A stretch of 64,000 bases of DNA from a virus (IMGVR_UViG_3300029286_001043:28228-92227); one strand, 5' to 3'. Positions 362-9,379 are shown, counted from the first letter of the stretch. Notes: generated from the sequence alone by a model not told the origin. Made by a program: numbers and translations.

Positions 362-1095
362 TCCTGTTCCTCTTCCTTTGGCTCTTCTACTTCAGGTTCT
401 TGTTCTATTTGACTCTTTCCTCGGGTATATGTATTTGCCTGTTCTTTTTCCTTTTTAGCTAAAGCCCCTGCTGCCTTCTTGACCGCCCCTACTTCTTTAT
501 TACTCATTGCTTCAGCTGCCTTGATTTCTTTACTATAGAAATCTCTTAAATACCCAGCAAAATCGCTAGTATATGCCGGTAATACTTTCCATACTGACTG
601 ACCGTGCTTGCACATTGCTCCATATTCTTTAGGATTGTTTCTCTTCGGCGGTCTGTTCTCAGGATTACCGAATTTAGCTTTACGCTGAGTACGAATATAC
701 TCAGATCCAGAGAAGGTGTCCGCCATACAGTCACAATCCTCTTCCATATCTACTCGGTTCAGTACTTCGGCCGCTAACAACTTATAATTTACACGACTTC
801 CATCTTCAAGCCAAATACTTCTATCTCTAACTGCCTTATTAATTACATCTACTATATTTTTAAATGCTACATACACATCATAATCGGCGCCAGGAGTTGT
901 ACCTGAAGCTACAGAAAATCTCCATACCCCAGGTTTCTTTTCTTTCAATCTAATCCCGCCATTTGCTGAAATATCTCTAATTCGTTGAGCAAACTTATCA
1001 GGATTGTACAAACGAGTAACTGAACGTTGTTTGTTTGCAATCTGACCAAACGTAACCTCATTTAATATATGACTAGCAAATTCAGTTATACTCAT
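358..1095 (-). CDS. hypothetical protein in head-gene neighbourhood; acidic Glu/Pro/Lys-rich C-terminal tail
   Basis: 245-aa ORF, same strand, translationally coupled to neighbours. No recognisable family motif. Confidence 0.5.
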   Translation of the reverse strand: MSITEFASHILNEVTFGQIANKQRSVTRLYNPDKFAQRIRDISANGGIRLKEKKPGVWRFSVASGTTPGADYDVYVAFKNIVDVINKAVRDRSIWLEDGSRVNYKLLAAEVLNRVDMEEDCDCMADTFSGSEYIRTQRKAKFGNPENRPPKRNNPKEYGAMCKHGQSVWKVLPAYTSDFAGYLRDFYSKEIKAAEAMSNKEVGAVKKAAGALAKKEKEQANTYTRGKSQIEQEPEVEEPKEEEQE

Positions 1096-1968: not shown

Positions 1969-2011
1969 TAATTTAAAACTCCAGGAACGGGGGATCGAAG
2001 GCCCCCGTTCC
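1969..2011 (-). terminator. Rho-independent terminator after the MCP/HEG unit
   Basis: GC-rich hairpin GGAACGGGGG(1984-1993)/CCCCCGTTCC(2002-2011), followed on the minus-strand RNA by UGGAGUUUUAAAUU. Confidence 0.5.
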
Positions 2012-2024
2012 ATAGAGTAATTTG

Positions 2025-3041
2025 TTAACTTAAACCAGAAATCGTTCCATGACAGAACGCGCCTGGATTAATTACCTTGTACGCAGCAGAAGAAAGAAAT
2101 CCCTTCTGAGCCTTCAAGTCTGTAGCAGTAATCAGCGTAGGTGTAGTGAACAGAGGAATATCATTTTTGTTACCATCACGAATGATGGGCTTAGTGATTT
2201 CTAGTTCTCCTAAGCTCCTAATATCGCTACTAGGATCAGACTGTACCATATTCTCTTTCGAGATTTGTCGATTACAGTCGTTGAACCTCTTGTCATTATG
2301 AAAATTAACAATCTTTGTTAACAAACTAACTCTATTAGAATCTACTAATTCGGATTCCCAAATAATAAGTAAATCATATCCGTGATCTTTAAAAAATTTT
2401 ATTCGATCAAATTCAGACATAATATTTGGAAATTTATTAGCATCATGCCAATAGTCGCCGAACATATCAATCATTTTGTTATTATTAATTGATATAATAT
2501 CCGGATGTCTATTACCGACTAACTTTCCGCCTTTCGGATAATTTAATTGATAACAGCCAGGTAAAATTGATTCCAAAATATTAATAAGATAAACTTCTTT
2601 ATCATTAGGGAAAGTCTTAGATGCCCGAATTACATTAGTAATACGGGTAGTATTTTTAGCAAGCTTGCTTTTAATCTTAGCACGTACTTCCGGCCTTTTA
2701 GCTGGATTCTTATCCCCAATCATCCTAAGAGGTGTATGTTCTGCACAATAAGTTGAATCACTATATGTTCTTATTTTGCAAACTGGACAATACTGCCAAG
2801 TATCTTTATACTCTTTCCCATCCCTATGTAATATCATATTTGTTATCATTTCTAAAGAATGTTTCTTACCATAAAATGGATTATTTTCACCTGTTAATTT
2901 GTTAACTCGATCATCTGATGTAAATTTAGTTATTCCATATAATTTAGTAGCTTCATCTTCAGTTATTTTATGTTTTCTTAACAAATGTATCTGCAAGAAA
3001 TCATATCTACTATCGCATATAGGACAACTTAATTTACCCAT
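2025..3041 (-). CDS. homing endonuclease-like protein (NUMOD3-like repeats + Vsr/DUF559-like PD-(D/E)xK nuclease domain) with C-terminal 44 aa duplicating the MCP C-terminus
   Basis: Motifs ENNPFYGKKHS and GDKNPAKRPEVRAKIKSKLAK (NUMOD3-like). HPDIISIN...MFGDYWHD...LLIIWESEL matches the PDF / IEVDGxxH / VLRFWE pattern of Vsr/DUF559 nucleases. The last 44 aa (IPLFTTPTLITATDLKAQKGFLSSAAYKVINPGAFCHGTISGLS) are 43/44 identical to the C-terminus of ORF 3183..4502. Confidence 0.7.
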   Translation of the reverse strand: MGKLSCPICDSRYDFLQIHLLRKHKITEDEATKLYGITKFTSDDRVNKLTGENNPFYGKKHSLEMITNMILHRDGKEYKDTWQYCPVCKIRTYSDSTYCAEHTPLRMIGDKNPAKRPEVRAKIKSKLAKNTTRITNVIRASKTFPNDKEVYLINILESILPGCYQLNYPKGGKLVGNRHPDIISINNNKMIDMFGDYWHDANKFPNIMSEFDRIKFFKDHGYDLLIIWESELVDSNRVSLLTKIVNFHNDKRFNDCNRQISKENMVQSDPSSDIRSLGELEITKPIIRDGNKNDIPLFTTPTLITATDLKAQKGFLSSAAYKVINPGAFCHGTISGLS

Positions 3042-3182
3042 TCATAACTCCAATTTGGCTGCTGATTGACCGCACTAAAACATTTTTACTATTTCTAGTA
3101 GTTTTAGATACTCGGTTATTCCAGCAAGTTTCGACATTTTCTATATAAATTTCTTTATATAGCCGCATATATATCCCTTCCT

Positions 3183-4502
3183 TTAGGATAATCCGCTTAT
3201 TGTTCCATGGCAAAACGCGCCTGGATTTATTACTTTATACGCTGCTGAACTTAAAAAACCCTTTTGGGCTTTAAGATCTGTAGCAGTAATTAAAGTACTT
3301 GTAGTAAAAAGTGGAATATACGGGCAGAATGCAAATGCGCCTTGAATAAAACTGTCACCTTTCCATCCAAAGATTATTTCAGCTGCAGATAAGAACGGAT
3401 CATGAACAACAACGCGACCGTCCAGTGTACCTAAAACATAAGGACCTGTAGGTGTAATACCGTCAAGACCGGGAGCGGCTTTAAAGTTCGGAGCCAACTG
3501 ACGAATAAGTCTTGATGTATCGTTACCGGCAATAATCCAAGAACATTGCATCCTTAATGTCTTAGCTAAGATGTTAACGTTTGCTTTTTCAACGAAATCA
3601 AGGAACTGATATTTCTTCCAAATCCATTCTGCGCCAGTAGCAACAGTAGCGGAGAAATCGCCTGGAGTAGTAGCACAGCCAGTACCAGTTGAAGCATCGT
3701 TGATCAAGTCGATACCTAAGTGGTCCATCGTAACACGAACTTCTCCACCTAAATATTTTACTACTTCGTCTTCAAGAGAAAGACCATGAGCCTTCTGAAG
3801 ATCAAATGCAGCAGCTAAGCTGTATTGAGCCATCAGAGGGAAATCCTCGGCAGTTACTGTCTCATAAGTTAAGTCGAAATTAACTGAAGGAACAGCAGCT
3901 GAGGTCTTTGTTTCGTAGTTGTATTTGTATGTTGCGCTACCAGATGTGATCGCGAGGTCATTTGTAATTTCAATTGCACCAGTTGTATAGTTGATTGTAC
4001 CAGCTTCAAGTAAAGAAGCATCGTCAGCAACCAATACATTCGCGCCATTATCTGTATATGTACGAGTACCACCTGCATCTACAATGGTAATAACTGCAGA
4101 ACCGGCAATTACAGGAATATAAGCTAATGTACCAGTTTTAATGTTCGCAGCTTGTCCGACTTTAGTTGTCAAAACAACAACTTCGTCCTGAACTCTCGTA
4201 GAAGCATACCTACGACCAGCCCTTGTTGTATTATGGCCAGTTTTTGCAGCCATCATATTTGAATCTGCAGCAATTGCGCCTTTAGCCTGACCATACTTCA
4301 CGTCAAGATAAAAAACTCCGCCAGATCGGCGGTCTAAAGCCTGAACAATCGCCAACTCGTTTAATACTGTGCTAGGAATAAGAGCAGCTATAATAGGTAA
4401 CTGTCGTTCTGTAATCTCTTCTTTAGAAGAGTGTCGGACTATATCATCATCCTCAAAATATTTACTAATTCTATTTTGGGAGCTGGGCGCTATTTGAAAC
4501 AT
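3183..4502 (-). CDS. gp23: major capsid protein, T4 gp23-like (HK97 fold)
   Basis: 439-aa ORF in the head module downstream of the prohead protease gene. Composition and length are typical of T4-type MCPs. The conserved C-terminal tail is duplicated in the adjacent HEG. Confidence 0.75.
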   Translation of the reverse strand: MFQIAPSSQNRISKYFEDDDIVRHSSKEEITERQLPIIAALIPSTVLNELAIVQALDRRSGGVFYLDVKYGQAKGAIAADSNMMAAKTGHNTTRAGRRYASTRVQDEVVVLTTKVGQAANIKTGTLAYIPVIAGSAVITIVDAGGTRTYTDNGANVLVADDASLLEAGTINYTTGAIEITNDLAITSGSATYKYNYETKTSAAVPSVNFDLTYETVTAEDFPLMAQYSLAAAFDLQKAHGLSLEDEVVKYLGGEVRVTMDHLGIDLINDASTGTGCATTPGDFSATVATGAEWIWKKYQFLDFVEKANVNILAKTLRMQCSWIIAGNDTSRLIRQLAPNFKAAPGLDGITPTGPYVLGTLDGRVVVHDPFLSAAEIIFGWKGDSFIQGAFAFCPYIPLFTTSTLITATDLKAQKGFLSSAAYKVINPGAFCHGTISGLS

Positions 4503-5448
4503 TATTAGACCTTTCGTCTTCAGTTTCTAGTCTCTGCACCTTACAATTACTTAATTTATTGTCCATATTATCTTGTAATTCAGACAATAGAAAGGGTAAC
4601 TGTCTTGGCTCAGGATTACCATAAAAATAATTAAAAATATCTTTAGTATATAAACCATACATTAATCCATTAACCTTGCAATAATCTCTAAGAGCATTTA
4701 ATTTCGTTATCGTTAACTTATCATTTAATAAATGTGAACCTTTTATTTCAATTATTGCAATAGTTTCATTATTCACATTTAAAATTTTAAAATCTGGATA
4801 AGTATTATGCCCGTCATATGGAATAGCAAGTTTACTGCGCTGAACTATTAATAGAGAACCTATTCGGCGTTTAAATCCATGCAAAAATTCAAGTTCTAAT
4901 CCAGAACCGTAGAATACATTATCAAAATATCCACGTTTAACCTTTCCATAAAGTGATAATGAACTTCTAAAATCAATACCTTCTTGTGATGAATTCCATT
5001 CGTTCATCTTTATGGCAGTTCTATCATGATATTCCGGATCTGACCAAATCTTTGTCATTGATTTAGACATTTTTTCTCGTTTTAATATTGCCTTTTCTAT
5101 TCCCATTTGCTCTTCATAAGATCGAGAACTCTTTTCACTTAATTGTTTTCTAATTTGCAAGGCCTTCTGGATACCGTATTGCTGTTCAAAAGTTTTACAG
5201 CGTCTTTTATCGCCAGACACTTTCCCACCAATCTTAGTAAATCCCGTTTCCATTACTGTTTTAATAAGACCGGCTCGTTGTTTAGCTATCTTCTTATTAG
5301 CGTGTTCTTCACCATATCTTTCAATATATGATACCCCAGCTAATAAATGATTCTGATAACTAATATGACAAGACCGACTACAAAACTCGCGTTTCGACGG
5401 TATTTCCTTTGAACATTGTCTACAAATATTTTTAACTTTATTTTCCAT
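4471..5448 (-). CDS. homing endonuclease-like protein (Zn finger, NUMOD-like repeats, PD-(D/E)xK domain)
   Basis: N-terminal CxxC...CxxxC. Repeats YGEEHANKKIAKQRAGLIKTV and YGIQKALQIRKQL. C-terminal YPDFKILNVNNETIAIIEIKGSHLL is a PD-(D/E)xK core. Overlaps the MCP start by 32 nt. Confidence 0.6.
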   Translation of the reverse strand: MENKVKNICRQCSKEIPSKREFCSRSCHISYQNHLLAGVSYIERYGEEHANKKIAKQRAGLIKTVMETGFTKIGGKVSGDKRRCKTFEQQYGIQKALQIRKQLSEKSSRSYEEQMGIEKAILKREKMSKSMTKIWSDPEYHDRTAIKMNEWNSSQEGIDFRSSLSLYGKVKRGYFDNVFYGSGLELEFLHGFKRRIGSLLIVQRSKLAIPYDGHNTYPDFKILNVNNETIAIIEIKGSHLLNDKLTITKLNALRDYCKVNGLMYGLYTKDIFNYFYGNPEPRQLPFLLSELQDNMDNKLSNCKVQRLETEDERSNNVSNSAQLPK

Positions 5449-5507
5449 TAGGCTTCCCTGAATTCACCCAGTTATTAAAATTGGATTACTCCAATTTGGG
5501 ACACAGT

Positions 5508-5768
5508 TTAATTACGCATCCCTAAGAAGTCGATGTTACTAGAATCAGTAGTTTCAAAAAGTTTCGAAACCCTTGATTTACCAGCATTTAACAGAGCGTT
5601 TTCTGCGCAACGAGATATGTTGTGCTTCATATTCTCTGTTAACTCTTTTCCTTGTTTCTTCATATAACCTTCAGCAGCTTTGATAATCGGTGCCCATGCT
5701 TCAGACAACGCGGTTCTCTCTGCATTCTGAGCGGCCATACGCGATTCTAATAATTCGTTGATCTTCAT
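5508..5768 (-). CDS. hypothetical small protein
   Basis: 86-aa ORF on the gene strand between the protease-scaffold gene and the HEG. Confidence 0.4.
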   Translation of the reverse strand: MKINELLESRMAAQNAERTALSEAWAPIIKAAEGYMKKQGKELTENMKHNISRCAENALLNAGKSRVSKLFETTDSSNIDFLGMRN

Positions 5769-5791
5769 TTAAATAATTCTCCTTTAATTTG

Positions 5792-8700
5792 TTATTGCCC
5801 CATTGCTCTAAAAGCGGAAGCAATTTGTTTAGATATTACTGATTCTTCAATCGGCTCGCCAACATTGATCTCGGTCACAGGATTAAAGTGTAATCCATTT
5901 CCTCTAATCATGTCTTGAACCATTTCAATAAGTTTATCTACTTCCGATACTGACTTACATGATTCGAAAAGTGTTCGAACATTGTCAGGAAGCTTCAAAC
6001 CCATTGTTTTGACCTTTGTTTCGGTATATGTCTTAACGAGCCCCATAGCGTGGGACTCTTTAAGCAATCTAATTTGCTTCTCATTTGATTCTTTAAGCTG
6101 CTTTATTTGATCTTCGATATTCTTCAATTGTTTTTCTAATTTAGATTTTATTTCTTCGGCTTTTGCTAATGCAGAAGATTTATCACCTAATTTTTCATTC
6201 AATTCTTTTATTGTCTTCTTCGATTCTTCTAATTCCCCATGCTCTTTATGAAAATTAGCAGAAACTTTCACCAATTCCGCTGTTTTTGCATCCAAATGGG
6301 CAGATACGTCTCTTAGCTTAGAAGACAAATCTGAAACATCATGCGTATAATTTGCGGATACTTCGTTAACTCTCTTCTCTAATACAGTACCTAATTCAAT
6401 TGCCTTATCCCGTTCGGCAATTAGGATTGCTTCAGAAACTTTTGTTTTAGACTCATTATTAAAACCGACCCTTAATAATTCTTTAAAAAATGCGGGGTTT
6501 TCTTTCATAATTCTCTGCATTTCTTCTTTATCTTTTTTATCTGATTCCTCATTCGCTTCCTTAGCCTCTACCGTAGTATTAACCGTCTTGATCTCGCCCT
6601 TACCGTCTTCCCTCTTCTCTTTGTACTCTTCGGCCTTCTTGTCTTTAATATCCTGTTTGTCGATAATATCTTGCTTGACAGTTTCAGGTGTTGTAATTGC
6701 CGCTTCATTCTTCTTTTCATTCATATAAGTCTCGGCTCTCTTTAACGATTCTTTATATTCCCAAACCATTGTTGAACACTCTATAATTTTTTCTTGCCGT
6801 AAATCAATAACTATATCTATCTTTTTGCCCATTTTCTTTTCTAAACTGTCAGTTATTTCAGATATTTGTCCTTGATAATCGGTAGTAAATACATTAGAAT
6901 CTATTGCAACAAAAACATAATTTTCAGGCATAAATATAATATACCCGCCTATTAAATACTTATCCTCTTTTTTATATCCTAATTCAATTAAATCCTTTTT
7001 GCCATCATAATATTCTAATTTAGCAGAGCCAGTATTATATACCCAAGTGCCAATAGGTAAAGCTCCACGTTGTACAATAGACCAGGACCTAGATAAAACG
7101 GTTTGTTTTTTCTGTTCATCAGTTAAGTCTTTAAAGTCTTCAGTTAATCCTACTATTTTAATATATGCTTGATTTAAAATCAGACTCTCACCTATCTTCA
7201 TGATCTCAGCTTCCAATCCACGTCTCTGAATTTCTTTCATCAGTGCATCGACTTCCTTGTTTAATTCTTGATGATCGTCAGAAGCCATTGATTTATACCT
7301 AGTTAATATCTCTTCATTGGACAATTTGGAAAGATCTGCAGATTCAGTAATATCCTTTTTCTCTCCCGGCCCGCCAAATTCATTCTCTAATTCAGCTTCA
7401 GTTTTATCCACCAATTTCTTAAATTCAGCAGGACTGATTCCCCTCTTATCCGCATATTTCTTGGCCAATTCCGGATCGTCTGAACCTGAATTAATATAGT
7501 CAAGAATATCAGCCGGAACTTTCTTACCTTCCACCACCTTCGATTCCTTCATCAATGAATCAGGATAATGTTTAGACATTTTATTTTTGTTATTGGCCCA
7601 GAATAAATCGGCTTGTTTACTATACTTGCCCTTCCACCAATTTGCAGCAGCAACATTCGCCTTATCTTCTGGCCATCCTAATTGAGATTGACATTCAGCA
7701 GATACTGAACCGAAATTATTACCGCCGACTCTACCTGCTATAACACTTATTTGCCAAGCTTCTTTATCGGTCAAAACTAAACTCGCCTCTTCTACCTTGG
7801 CTTCAGTTACTACCATAAAATCCTGAGCCGAATCGTCTGAATCTAATTCAACTATAACCTTATTACCGTCCGCTTTCATATGAATAATATGCTTATTGCG
7901 TAATTCCTTAAACGTAGTCTCATTTGTTTTAGCTTCATTCGACACCTTAGCTCCTATCCACTTTACCTTATTAGATTTGCAAGCCGGACAAATCATTCGA
8001 TCGTTTTGATCTACTGAAACTGCAAATATATCTCCATTCCATCCACAGTCAGGACAGAACATTTTGCAGCTTTCGTCTAACGATTCTTTCAATTCTTCTC
8101 TAGTTCGAGCAATAACCTTAGGCAATAACTCCTTCAGCAATAAAACATTGTTCTCAGGATATTTCTCCCCTATTACTTTAACTATCTCTTCATCAGTATT
8201 GCCATCTATCACCATGTCCTTTACGACCGCTTCAATATCGTCGTAAATACCTTCGTCTAACTCCTTTAATTCATCCTTTAAATCTTTGGTAATGGTTTTG
8301 ATCTTCTCAGTATCATTGTTAATCTTTTGAATATCATCTTTAATGGCCTCATCGACAATTGCAGCATCACAGCATGAACTCTTGTCATCGCCTTGAGTTA
8401 CTCGAGCCCCACATTTAGAACAGACTTTGCCATGGGCGATCTTGTTGTCGTCGTTCTGATAGTCTTCTTTTACTTCAATTTTATTCTTTAATTTCCATAA
8501 TTCACCCGATTCTAATTTAGAAATCTGACCATCGTTTTCAGCCTTTTCTATTTCATCCTCAATTACTGATAATGCCGGTCTATTTATATAATTAGGATTG
8601 GTAATCATATCTACTAATTCATCGTATCTTCTGCTTTCTTTTACTTCGACTTCGTTAGCATGCTCACATCCGCCACTACACTTCTTTTCCCCTAACTTAC

Positions 8701-9379
8701 ATTTACACTCTTTATGCTGCTTGTCTATAGAAATATCTTCTTTCAGCTTGAGTGCCTTCTTCGATCCGGCCTTTTCTAATAAAGCAATAGCAACATTTTT
8801 ATTTATAGCATGAGATTCATAATTAGTCCGTACCGCTTTAACAATATCTTCAGGTTCAGTTTTAGAACAACTAGGATCCCCAGTGTGATCAACTGTAATA
8901 AATTTATATGAATCAGGTATTACTCGACTATACTTCTCGCCCGATTCATCAACTTCTTCTGATAATTCACCATCGGCCCTAGTACTTGCTGGAACTTTTA
9001 CGCCTGCTTCATGTAAAATCCAAATGAACTTTCCAGAATCTGTAGGAAGTATATCAAAATCAGCTTTAACCTCATTAGTAGATTCATCTATAAACATATT
9101 ACTAATAACATGTGAAGTCCGATCTTTATCTAATTTAATTGAAGATTCGGCTGGATGCTCATGCTCGCCTAATATTTGTCTAGCCTTTAATTTACTTTGA
9201 AATTCGGGATCATTAAGAACATTATCCCAGACTTTCCGTCCATAAATCCGTTTATTAGCATTTTTTTCGTCAATTACACAAATAGTCCGACGAATTCTAG
9301 CCAAAATACCGGATGGCAATTTTTTAGGATCGTTCTCTAAAATTTGTGTTTCATCTAAAATTCGTTCATTTAAATTCAT
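5792..9379 (-). CDS. gp21: giant prohead protease-like protein: N-terminal T4 gp21-like prohead core protease domain fused to ~1000 aa of zinc-ribbon and acidic coiled-coil (scaffold-like) sequence
   Basis: N-terminus NANKRIYGRKVWDNVL...ILGEHEHP parallels T4 gp21 NRNKRLYPKRILEKAV...LGELNHP. Several CxxC zinc ribbons (CPDCGW...CPACK, CSKCGARV). Long Lys/Glu heptad-rich C-terminal region. Continuous 1195-codon ORF. Confidence 0.55.
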   Translation of the reverse strand: MNLNERILDETQILENDPKKLPSGILARIRRTICVIDEKNANKRIYGRKVWDNVLNDPEFQSKLKARQILGEHEHPAESSIKLDKDRTSHVISNMFIDESTNEVKADFDILPTDSGKFIWILHEAGVKVPASTRADGELSEEVDESGEKYSRVIPDSYKFITVDHTGDPSCSKTEPEDIVKAVRTNYESHAINKNVAIALLEKAGSKKALKLKEDISIDKQHKECKCKLGEKKCSGGCEHANEVEVKESRRYDELVDMITNPNYINRPALSVIEDEIEKAENDGQISKLESGELWKLKNKIEVKEDYQNDDNKIAHGKVCSKCGARVTQGDDKSSCCDAAIVDEAIKDDIQKINNDTEKIKTITKDLKDELKELDEGIYDDIEAVVKDMVIDGNTDEEIVKVIGEKYPENNVLLLKELLPKVIARTREELKESLDESCKMFCPDCGWNGDIFAVSVDQNDRMICPACKSNKVKWIGAKVSNEAKTNETTFKELRNKHIIHMKADGNKVIVELDSDDSAQDFMVVTEAKVEEASLVLTDKEAWQISVIAGRVGGNNFGSVSAECQSQLGWPEDKANVAAANWWKGKYSKQADLFWANNKNKMSKHYPDSLMKESKVVEGKKVPADILDYINSGSDDPELAKKYADKRGISPAEFKKLVDKTEAELENEFGGPGEKKDITESADLSKLSNEEILTRYKSMASDDHQELNKEVDALMKEIQRRGLEAEIMKIGESLILNQAYIKIVGLTEDFKDLTDEQKKQTVLSRSWSIVQRGALPIGTWVYNTGSAKLEYYDGKKDLIELGYKKEDKYLIGGYIIFMPENYVFVAIDSNVFTTDYQGQISEITDSLEKKMGKKIDIVIDLRQEKIIECSTMVWEYKESLKRAETYMNEKKNEAAITTPETVKQDIIDKQDIKDKKAEEYKEKREDGKGEIKTVNTTVEAKEANEESDKKDKEEMQRIMKENPAFFKELLRVGFNNESKTKVSEAILIAERDKAIELGTVLEKRVNEVSANYTHDVSDLSSKLRDVSAHLDAKTAELVKVSANFHKEHGELEESKKTIKELNEKLGDKSSALAKAEEIKSKLEKQLKNIEDQIKQLKESNEKQIRLLKESHAMGLVKTYTETKVKTMGLKLPDNVRTLFESCKSVSEVDKLIEMVQDMIRGNGLHFNPVTEINVGEPIEESVISKQIASAFRAMGQ

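Follow-up and report, generated by a model that had tools for sequence, protein, structure and literature searches.

Two open reading frames (ORFs) on the minus strand of IMGVR_UViG_3300029286_001043:28228-92227, a 64,000-nt stretch of viral DNA that we call the window, end with nearly the same 44 amino acids: one belongs to a major capsid gene and the other encodes a homing endonuclease. The locus raises the question of how an endonuclease comes to carry the C-terminus of a capsid protein, and why the capsid gene is followed by a second copy of its own end. Almost certainly, a group I intron (intron 2) interrupts the capsid gene shortly before its stop codon and holds the endonuclease gene (HEG1) in one of its loops. 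The downstream copy of the capsid end (copy B) would be the native last exon, and the upstream one (copy A) an added, recoded duplicate. The features of the locus, in the direction of transcription, are as follows.

3320..4404, minus strand: capsid exon 2, ending UGC CCG U at the predicted 5' splice site; aligns with residues 86-447 of relatives
3183..3319, minus strand: copy A, 137 nt (AT, 44 codons and TAA) that repeat the last exon in recoded form; its frame continues that of exon 2, and it fills the space from the 5' splice site to the first intron nucleotide
3055..3182, minus strand: predicted 5' half of the intron 2 ribozyme, with the L1/P10 guide, guide GCGG (3166..3163), P2, P3 5' strand and P4-P6, from alignment and covariation
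3034..3168, minus strand: 44-codon leader ORF across the ribozyme 5' half, with its own Shine-Dalgarno sequence AGGAAGGG and a stop codon that overlaps the HEG1 start ATGAATGGGTAA
2291..3041, minus strand: HEG1 endonuclease proper, in the predicted P6 loop, with a zinc-finger-like CPIC..H..H motif, two NUMOD3 motifs and a Vsr-like PD-(D/E)XK domain, from Pfam NUMOD3 and a family profile
2162..2290, minus strand: predicted 3' half of the intron 2 ribozyme, with P6', J6/7, P7, P3', P8, P7', P9, P9.1, P9.2 and terminal G 2162, from covariation and compensatory changes in every helix
2025..2161, minus strand: copy B, capsid exon 3 (AT, 44 codons and TAA), which the HEG1 ORF also uses as its final 44 codons; sole C-terminus in seven lineages
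1984..2011, minus strand: terminator-type hairpin GGAACGGGGG-CCTTCGAT-CCCCCGTTCC after copy B (-27.5 kcal/mol)

Duplication of the capsid C-terminus

The ORFs at 2025..3041 (338 amino acids) and 3183..4502 (439 amino acids), the latter placed in the major capsid family of T4 gp23 by Pfam (PF07068, E = 4e-31), share the ending IPLFTT(P/S)TLITATDLKAQKGFLSSAAYKVINPGAFCHGTISGLS followed directly by the stop codon. As the initial annotation had stated, and as translation of the ORFs bears out, 43 of their final 44 amino acids are identical; the sole difference is a Pro in the 338-residue ORF and a Ser in the 439-residue ORF. The codons for the common peptide lie at 3186-3317 (copy A) and 2028-2159 (copy B) on the minus strand. 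Protein similarity sets in abruptly at the Ile codon, and DNA similarity begins with the AT two nucleotides before it.

The DNA of the two copies is far less alike, with 97 of 132 positions identical (73.5%) and agreement at 20 of the 44 third positions. Random back-translations of the peptide, drawn with the codon usage of the capsid gene, share 101 ± 4 nt, so the synonymous sites of A and B are fully randomised and the copies are as different as a common protein permits. Three of the four common Ser codons even switch between the AGY and TCN families. These switches, together with saturated synonymous divergence, distort an NG86 estimate of the ratio of nonsynonymous to synonymous substitution (dN/dS), and a simulation of neutral substitution was used in its place: 35 random nucleotide differences are expected to leave 22 ± 2 amino acids identical, against the 43 observed (P < 5e-5). 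The dN/dS-style comparison that the initial annotation had proposed thus confirms a purely synonymous divergence between A and B, and its statement that nearly all differences are synonymous holds; its figure of about 65-70% DNA identity was somewhat low, although the divergence it described is real.

The gene order of the window also occurs on contigs with an identical capsid ORF (n = 9), and a diverged version of the two-copy arrangement is present in two independent samples (loci L005 and L006). An assembly artefact is therefore unlikely to be its source.

A group I intron between the copies

Comparison with metagenomic relatives accounts for the sequence that separates A from B. Below, W denotes the window, L and P numbers denote the loci and proteins of the relatives, and residue numbers of insertions are those of L003. 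Mapping of capsid-homologous segments with tblastn places an insertion in the same codon in nine lineages, after CCG-U of Pro-Tyr and before AU-AUU-CC. Seven of these lineages (L007/8, L009, L010, L011, L012/13, L135/133 and L138) have capsid residues 448-491 only once, and only after the insertion. Because no other copy precedes the insertion there, the segment that follows it, the equivalent of copy B, is the genuine last exon, and removal of the insertion must take place in the RNA. In all lineages the exon closes with CCGU, the guide GCGG comes 7-13 nt after the insert begins, and conserved blocks flank the endonuclease ORF on either side. An invariant UG stands before AUAUUCC at the 3' splice site, so that a G precedes the 3' junction throughout.

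Covariation was tested on the endonuclease-deleted "mini-introns" of seven lineages, using a ten-helix structure that includes P1, P2, the P3 pseudoknot, P4-P6, P7, P8 and P9. Over 60 proposed pairs, 97.1% of cells are paired, compared with 31-42% when the partners are slid, and double-sided changes occur at 33 of the 60 pairs, compared with 14.6 ± 2.6 in shuffles (0/500 reach the observed count). All five pairs of the P3 pseudoknot covary, the P7 helix GACUGU/ACAGUC is conserved, and the P9, P9.1 and P9.2 hairpins are maintained by compensatory changes in every lineage. P1 (CCGU/GCGG) is invariant in the seven lineages, with U.G at the cleavage position.

Homologs without an endonuclease, and therefore contiguous, occur at the same capsid site and are recognised by Rfam as group I introns (RF00028), with 58.8 bits in L135 and 67.4 bits in L138 against a gathering threshold of 50 bits. 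These introns lie at 569-955 (minus strand) in L135, 1476-1862 (minus strand) in L133 and 5732-6002 (plus strand) in L138. L138 apparently has two introns only about 10 codons apart, the second matching at 5349-5692 with 49.5 bits. Uninterrupted capsid genes also occur among the relatives, as in L003 and L004. For intron 2 of the window, group I membership is supported by covariation and by the homologous mini-introns, and we have very high confidence in both the intron anatomy and the class assignment.

Several details in the window agree with this assignment. Within the 3' half of the intron, which doubles as a 43-codon "linker" within the HEG1 ORF, GGUUCAACGACUGUAAUC fits the Rfam consensus for J6/7-P7. 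The start of the L005 intron, AGGUAUAUGCGG, is complementary to the ligated junction formed by CCGU and AUAUUCCU (P10 plus P1), while the start of the window's intron has an AU-rich expansion between AGGAA and AUAUGCGG. The predicted junction of exon 2 with copy B in the window is CCGU followed by AUAUUCCUCUG. Ligation of exon 1 (described below), exon 2 and copy B gives a protein of 490 amino acids with no internal stop, collinear with the 491-residue protein of L003 at 81.7% identity.

The same J6/7-P7...P7' core motif marks introns in other genes on 17 viral contigs (IMG/VR loci L024, L028, L029, L033, L034 and others), and by this motif the intron subtype appears to be widespread in uncultured phages. 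A search of IMG/VR with a 16-mer from the intron core gave mostly chance matches and none in this capsid gene. A scan of genomes and metagenome-assembled genomes (MAGs) with the splice-junction pattern returned two chance matches that have no capsid homology, and hence no host information.

The endonuclease and its reading frame

A profile built from the HEG1 family matches the Protein Data Bank entry 3R3P, "Mobile intron protein" (E = 2e-6), which we take to be the catalytic domain of I-Bth0305I, as well as Vsr (1CW0, 1VSR and 1ODG; E = 0.007-0.04) and the I-TevI DNA-binding domain (1I3J). The family profile was needed, as searches of that databank and NCBIfam with single endonuclease sequences gave nothing useful. 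The residues invariant in the family (E149, P180-D181, K189 and W198-H199) are all present in the window, and by sequence HEG1 appears to be a homing endonuclease of the EDxHD or I-Bth0305I type, which combines a Vsr-like PD-(D/E)XK domain with NUMOD3. The initial annotation took it for a mobile cassette; the gene instead lies in the P6 loop of a covarying group I intron. An intein can be dismissed, as HEG1 has no Hint or intein match in Pfam and stop codons separate exon 2 and copy A from the endonuclease.

The position of the gene also explains its capsid-like tail. Lacking a stop codon of its own, the HEG1 ORF takes in the ribozyme's 3' half, continues past the 3' splice site and terminates only where the capsid gene does; it therefore "ends with" the capsid C-terminus. 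Homologs of the 338-residue protein, 32-43% identical to it, likewise run through a conserved "linker" into the capsid tail, and in P0126 the capsid exon frame passes straight into the endonuclease region, with no tail copy upstream. The in-frame tail was earlier ascribed to the duplication; since the ORF runs into B in genomes that lack A as well, this view has to be abandoned. The ORF includes the B tail in 5 of about 10 endonuclease homologs, and several others (L012, P0127, P0129 and P0131) stop inside the ribozyme, for which reason the capsid-derived tail appears to be dispensable for the enzyme.

Every lineage keeps the frame of the leader ORF open up to the endonuclease ATG, where it stops, and in L007 and L009-L011 the leader shares the frame of capsid exon 2. 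This layout suggests that translation of the endonuclease is coupled to ribosomes that enter the unspliced intron, where they would compete with folding of the ribozyme.

Copy B as the likely native end, copy A as the likely addition

Terminator context, the Pro/Ser difference and codon usage all indicate that B is the native end and A the added copy. Hairpins equivalent to the one after copy B follow the capsid stop codon in L003, L004 and copy B of L005, and there is none after copy A. Copy B has the consensus Pro, as do about 110 of about 130 related tails, while Ser at this position is found only in the two A copies. The ratio of NNC to NNT codons in the window is 4:4 in B and 42:44 in the capsid exons, against 1:7 in A and 9:61 and 6:49 in the endonuclease genes. 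The codon-usage log-likelihood ratio of copy A is -9.3, which is 4.5 standard deviations from the capsid expectation of 6.0 ± 3.4.

In W and L005 alike, the insert that constitutes copy A measures exactly 137 nt; the seven other intron-bearing lineages lack it. The two-copy state is thus seen in two of nine such lineages, and a second tail is found only in the window and L005/L006. That these genomes have the length and the Ser in common points to a single origin of copy A. Its most plausible source would be a mixed infection in which a diverged intron-less allele, through its stop codon, was joined illegitimately to the start of the intron. Part of the initial annotation stands here: the added, recoded end is A, and it does belong to a mobile endonuclease element, although that element is a group I intron. 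Its further proposal, that B is an old end that happens to be read in frame, is contradicted by the seven lineages in which B is the only C-terminus and by the selection on B described below.

The possibility that copy A was recoded for the sake of RNA folding was considered and rejected, as the P1 probability is no higher with A than with copy B substituted or with random synonymous versions. Copy A alone does fold as a closed domain (z = -3.6 in W and -2.2 in L005). An alternative 5' splice site was sought at the end of copy A, and no CCGU-like sequence able to pair with the guide was found there.

Selection on, and exchange between, the copies

The two-copy clade is deeply diverged. Between W and L005 the ribozyme flanks are 82-84% identical, the endonucleases are 35-60% identical, and synonymous sites are saturated. 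The helices differ by seven double-compensatory and three wobble changes, with two disruptions in 58 pairs. Copy A has kept 41 of its 44 amino acids between the two genomes (neutral expectation 23.5 ± 2.1), and copy B has kept 38 of 44 (17.7 ± 2.2). Because the flanks are conserved, the helix changes are compensatory and residues are kept above neutral expectation, the ribozyme has been under purifying selection within the clade, and both copies under strong purifying selection.

The site patterns of the four sequences (A and B of W and L005) fall into three zones. Nucleotides 1-43 group by copy type (positions 8, 21, 22 and 27, including the CC-to-AG change that gives Ser). Nucleotides 44-90 are crossed, with A of W resembling B of L005 (38/47) and A of L005 resembling B of W (41/47). 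Nucleotides 91-134 group by genome, with lineage-specific residues inside near-identical patches of DNA. This clustering is non-random (runs test, P = 1.75e-4), and the pattern indicates that the copies have exchanged sequence repeatedly, except in the approximately 40 nt that adjoin the insertion site.

The insertion point marks the likely endonuclease target, in keeping with the earlier proposal that the 3' end of the capsid gene is the footprint of the target site. I-Bth0305I cuts next to its insertion site and has a footprint of about 60 bp, within which the central region has the highest specificity (PMC3239194). The junctions of exon 2 with A and of exon 2 with B are identical through +7 and differ at +8, +11, +14, +21, +22, +26, +27 and +29. 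An enzyme of this family would be expected to bind in the approximately 40 nt next to the insertion site, and the difference maintained in A there may shield the exon-exon junction that A recreates from the endonuclease of the intron, with the Pro-to-Ser codon as the best candidate for the determinant of immunity. Against such immunity, the exon 2-A junction equals the intron-less site through +7, the region in which I-Bth0305I is most specific (PMC3239194).

Apart from the Ser of copy A, the tail Pro is replaced (by Thr or Asn) only in P0048 (L139), P0052, P0077 and P0080 (L140). These four capsid proteins were considered as further cases of copy A; the two that could be checked, L139 and L140, are intron-less. 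The Thr and Asn alleles could be endonuclease-resistant. L140 has a free-standing LAGLIDADG gene just past the capsid terminator, and the intron-less L004 has a free-standing HNH endonuclease gene (7444-8060) right after its own. The capsid stop codon of L004 is followed by CCGT and AGGAAG (TAA-CCGT-AGGAAG), resembling the exon end (CCGT) and the start of the window's intron (AGGAAG), a likeness that is probably due to chance.

Two proposed routes to the capsid protein

We propose that a mobile group I intron with an I-Bth0305I-type endonuclease in its P6 loop entered the major capsid gene 44 codons before the stop codon, between the U and the AU of a Tyr codon. Copy A would have come with the element, or been captured by it, from a diverged capsid allele through illegitimate recombination. 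The capsid protein could then be made by two routes. In the first, intron and copy A are spliced out together, which would yield E1-E2-B with the consensus Pro. In the second, unspliced RNA would be translated straight through to give E1-E2-A; the unspliced frame does encode a complete capsid protein of 490 amino acids through copy A, in frame with exon 2 and with Ser for the near-invariant Pro. The two products would differ in a tryptic peptide, IPLFTTSTLITATDLK for copy A and IPLFTTPTLITATDLK for copy B, which are one residue apart. Copy A may persist because splicing that is incomplete would no longer be costly for a late gene expressed at very high levels, and the dissimilarity of A and B at the DNA level would prevent the direct repeats from recombining the intron away.

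This explanation, continued splicing included, is very probably right as a whole. That both routes are really used we consider only slightly favoured. Bolder still is the idea that the spare exon is a maintained adaptation, delivering the capsid by both routes (Pro when spliced, Ser when unspliced). Roughly the first 40 nt of copy A, the unique Pro-to-Ser codon change among them, would be kept distinct from B because they render the recreated junction immune to the intron's endonuclease, and the remainder of the copies could exchange freely. We regard this idea as tentative and rather doubtful. If true, it would represent a new accommodation between intron and host gene in viruses, in which the intron pays for its insertion with a cleavage-immune spare exon.

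A number of observations weigh against the explanation or limit it. We infer from sequence both the splicing in this phage and the use of two routes. Rfam gives no group I match on the window's intron 2, because the 750-nt endonuclease ORF splits its core. Closing P1 means bridging a loop of about 150 nt, as copy A puts the guide of W 153 nt from the splice site, and the predicted P1 probability is 0.62 in L005 and just 0.14 in W, where AU repeats permit slipped registers. The codon-usage contrast is mixed in L005, owing to the swapped middle segment. The nearest intron-less relatives are 70-77% identical in DNA to both A and B, which does not show which copy is ancestral, and exon 2 is 80-82% identical to the same relatives, none closer having been found; neither a boundary of co-conversion in exon 2 nor the ancestral copy can be read from DNA distances, all of which are near saturation. 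If B was replaced by co-conversion, the selection on it could partly predate the two-copy state and have acted in single-copy donors. Finally, the capsid gene has an upstream intron with no such bypass, so the phage depends on group I splicing regardless, and for this reason the rationale of copy A as insurance against failed splicing is weakened.

Alternative readings of the two-copy state

The alternative that survives best treats the two-copy allele as a passing stage in intron loss or in the exchange of gene fragments, one that brings no benefit in itself. It would have arisen by illegitimate recombination between an intron-bearing and a diverged intron-less allele, and recombination between A and B would in time delete the intron, leaving a chimeric, possibly endonuclease-resistant, intron-less gene. 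Just this has been proposed for Tremella, where fungal introns with a 5' duplicate of the following exon are interpreted in this way (PMC7315562). The exchange of segments between A and B recorded in the mosaic and the restriction of the two-copy state to two of nine lineages both agree with it. Persistence is harder to reconcile: an insert of exactly 137 nt and the Ser codon are common to W and L005 even though their endonucleases are 43% identical and their synonymous sites saturated, selection has acted on the ribozyme and on both copies all along, and the W allele is present on nine contigs. Nor was a chimeric intron-less descendant with Ser found among the roughly 130 tails. We judge this reading unlikely.

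Another possibility is that the intron no longer splices in two-copy genomes, so that A is the sole working C-terminus and B is kept for the endonuclease or by conversion from A. The inclusion of B in half of the endonuclease ORFs fits this, as does the near-identical A/B patch with its lineage-specific residues, which conversion would explain, and as does a P1 that spans about 150 nt. The endonuclease homologs that stop inside the ribozyme (P0127, P0129, P0131 and L012) speak against a need for the tail, however, and conversion would homogenise DNA that is at saturation outside the one patch. All ribozyme helices, the guide and the terminal G are intact in W, with compensatory changes since the divergence from L005, and the codon usage of B resembles that of the highly expressed capsid exons and not that of the endonuclease. 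Loss of splicing is accordingly an improbable account of the locus.

Least probable of all is the fungal pattern of mobile ORFs, in which a free-standing endonuclease cassette brought the recoded end A and left B as a non-functional relic read in frame: the order of gene core, inserted end, endonuclease and native end is that of Allomyces and Glomus (PMC3630166), A is element-like in its codon usage, B has a native context and the capsid ORF is complete with A alone, but a covarying group I ribozyme flanks the endonuclease and is conserved through compensatory changes in the two-copy clade, B is the only C-terminus at the same insertion in seven lineages, the endonuclease ORF reads into B where A is absent, and B shows no decay, having retained the consensus Pro and 38 of 44 residues at saturated synonymous divergence.

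Relation to known mobile elements

Phage introns with homing endonucleases are well known from T4 (td, nrdB and sunY) and from the SPO1 DNA polymerase gene. Further cases include capsid and tail genes of Cluster J mycobacteriophages (PMC3706429; see also PMC2988022) and the recA intron of the Bacillus thuringiensis phage 0305phi8-36, which encodes I-Bth0305I in P5, as opposed to P6 here (PMC3239194). As in those introns, the ribozyme of the window lies in a conserved codon of an essential gene and the endonuclease ORF in a peripheral loop, and HEG1 shares with I-Bth0305I the Vsr-like "EDxHD" family and NUMOD modules N-terminal to the nuclease. Unlike known phage introns, intron 2 has at its 5' end a copy of the exon downstream, recoded and in frame, such that splicing is not needed for a complete frame, and its endonuclease ORF crosses the 3' splice site into the exon.

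Integrative elements that target the 3' ends of genes for tRNAs or proteins bring a substitute for that end and are bounded by att direct repeats. They resemble the window's element in that their own copy of the displaced end restores the gene and a direct repeat is left. They differ in using site-specific recombinases and near-identical att repeats, where we find an intron with a homing endonuclease and repeats that are maximally different.

The closest layouts come from fungal mitochondria. Elements in atp6 of Allomyces macrogynus and in atp6, atp9, cox2 and nad3 of Glomus carry a foreign C-terminus that is 64-81% identical in DNA and 91-100% identical in protein to the native end left downstream (PMC3630166). 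They share with the window the order of gene core, inserted C-terminus, endonuclease and native C-terminus, and the endonuclease is sometimes in phase with its flanks. Most are intron-less, and the native end is unexpressed in atp6 and cox2 (PMC3630166), whereas here there is a predicted group I intron with a native 3' exon and selection on both copies. That class is defined by an intron-less ORF with a remnant native end, and the window's element, with its group I intron and a B under selection, falls outside it.

In mitochondrial introns of Tremella fuciformis, a 5' fragment duplicates the following exon (PMC7315562). There, as in the window, the 5' end of the intron encodes an analogue of the downstream exon of similar size, which has been read as foreign host-gene sequence (PMC7315562). 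The Tremella case concerns replacement of gene fragments within one fungus at 72-81% amino acid identity (PMC7315562), and the present one a virus with 98% amino acid identity at saturated synonymous divergence and with zone-specific exchange between the copies. Neither a selection analysis nor ribozyme covariation figures in the part of that report on which we draw (PMC7315562). A search of the phage literature found no report of an exon copy borne by an intron; as far as that literature was covered, the layout is known from fungal mitochondria and the phage case would be new. By analogy, its occurrence in both suggests that this architecture is a general outcome of homing between diverged alleles.

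Group I introns in phage genes are usually seen as tolerated through efficient splicing. Here splicing of intron 2 would be dispensable by virtue of a spare exon copy, and the two-copy state has come through deep divergence with both copies under selection. Should both routes be in use, three matters become testable: what imperfect splicing costs a late gene with very high expression, how a homing endonuclease avoids a target recreated by its element, and how direct repeats, here at maximal synonymous distance, survive in recombination-proficient phages. The locus also bears on annotation, as split capsid genes of this kind are routinely mis-called as a truncated capsid protein plus "hypothetical" fragments, and an endonuclease ORF that "ends in" the C-terminus of a host-gene protein is a flag for an unrecognised intron.

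The capsid gene and its upstream intron

Metagenomic relatives of the capsid protein are 480-495 amino acids long, and their alignment shows the window's gene to be split into pieces. No close relative of the capsid was found in IMG/VR; a DNA search of isolated phages gave no match, and the protein matches there are all below 30% identity, so the phage has no close cultured relative. An 86-codon ORF (5508..5768, minus strand) provides capsid residues 1-84, and the 439-residue ORF is capsid-homologous only from its residue 34, its first 33 codons lying inside an upstream intron. The initial annotation had equated the major capsid gene with 3183..4502, an ORF that is incomplete, with 84 N-terminal residues encoded at 5768..5518 and 33 intronic codons at its start. 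The upstream features are these.

5518..5768, minus strand: capsid exon 1 (84 codons), ending GGGAU at the predicted splice site; aligns with residues 1-85 of uninterrupted relatives, and joining to exon 2 restores FLG-I-QLP
4405..5517, minus strand: predicted upstream group I intron (intron 1), 1113 nt, with the HEG2 ORF, from an RF00028 match, P1 and a terminal G
5448..4471, minus strand: HEG2, a TnsA/PD-ExK-like endonuclease ORF in intron 1, from a weak Pfam TnsA-like match and a PHROG "endonuclease" match

Intron 1 matches Rfam RF00028 at 4674..4415 with 33.8 bits (E = 5e-6), below the gathering score. In a scan of the full 64 kb it was the sole group I match, and nothing reached the gathering threshold. 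Its P1 would be GGGAU/GUCCC with a G.U at the splice site, its last base is G, and ligation restores FLG-I-QLP as in relatives. These features indicate that a second group I intron, with an endonuclease of its own, splits the capsid gene upstream.

The capsid family is a hotspot for introns, with insertions after residues ~85, ~307-312, ~347-351, ~438 and 447. Genes in L005, L007, L009, L012, L135 and L138 have up to three introns each, mostly with TnsA-like endonucleases; the ORFs of these, for example P0135, P0140 and P0141, likewise extend into the exon that follows.

A 1195-residue ORF lies upstream of the capsid gene (5792-9379, minus strand). Its N-terminus weakly resembles the T4-type prohead protease (S77), at a score under the Pfam cut-off, and leads into an extended coiled-coil and acidic stretch that has Cys-rich inserts; the protein may combine protease and scaffold in one chain. 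Among the relatives, the L007 phage (1-669 and 9991-11811) has a tubulin homolog and a gene with an intein that includes an HNH domain, so that these genomes carry several kinds of selfish elements. Some relatives, P0095 and P0127 (L012/L013), come from MAGs that bear the labels Thorarchaeota and Heimdallarchaeaceae, which may be a binning artefact or a hint of the host.

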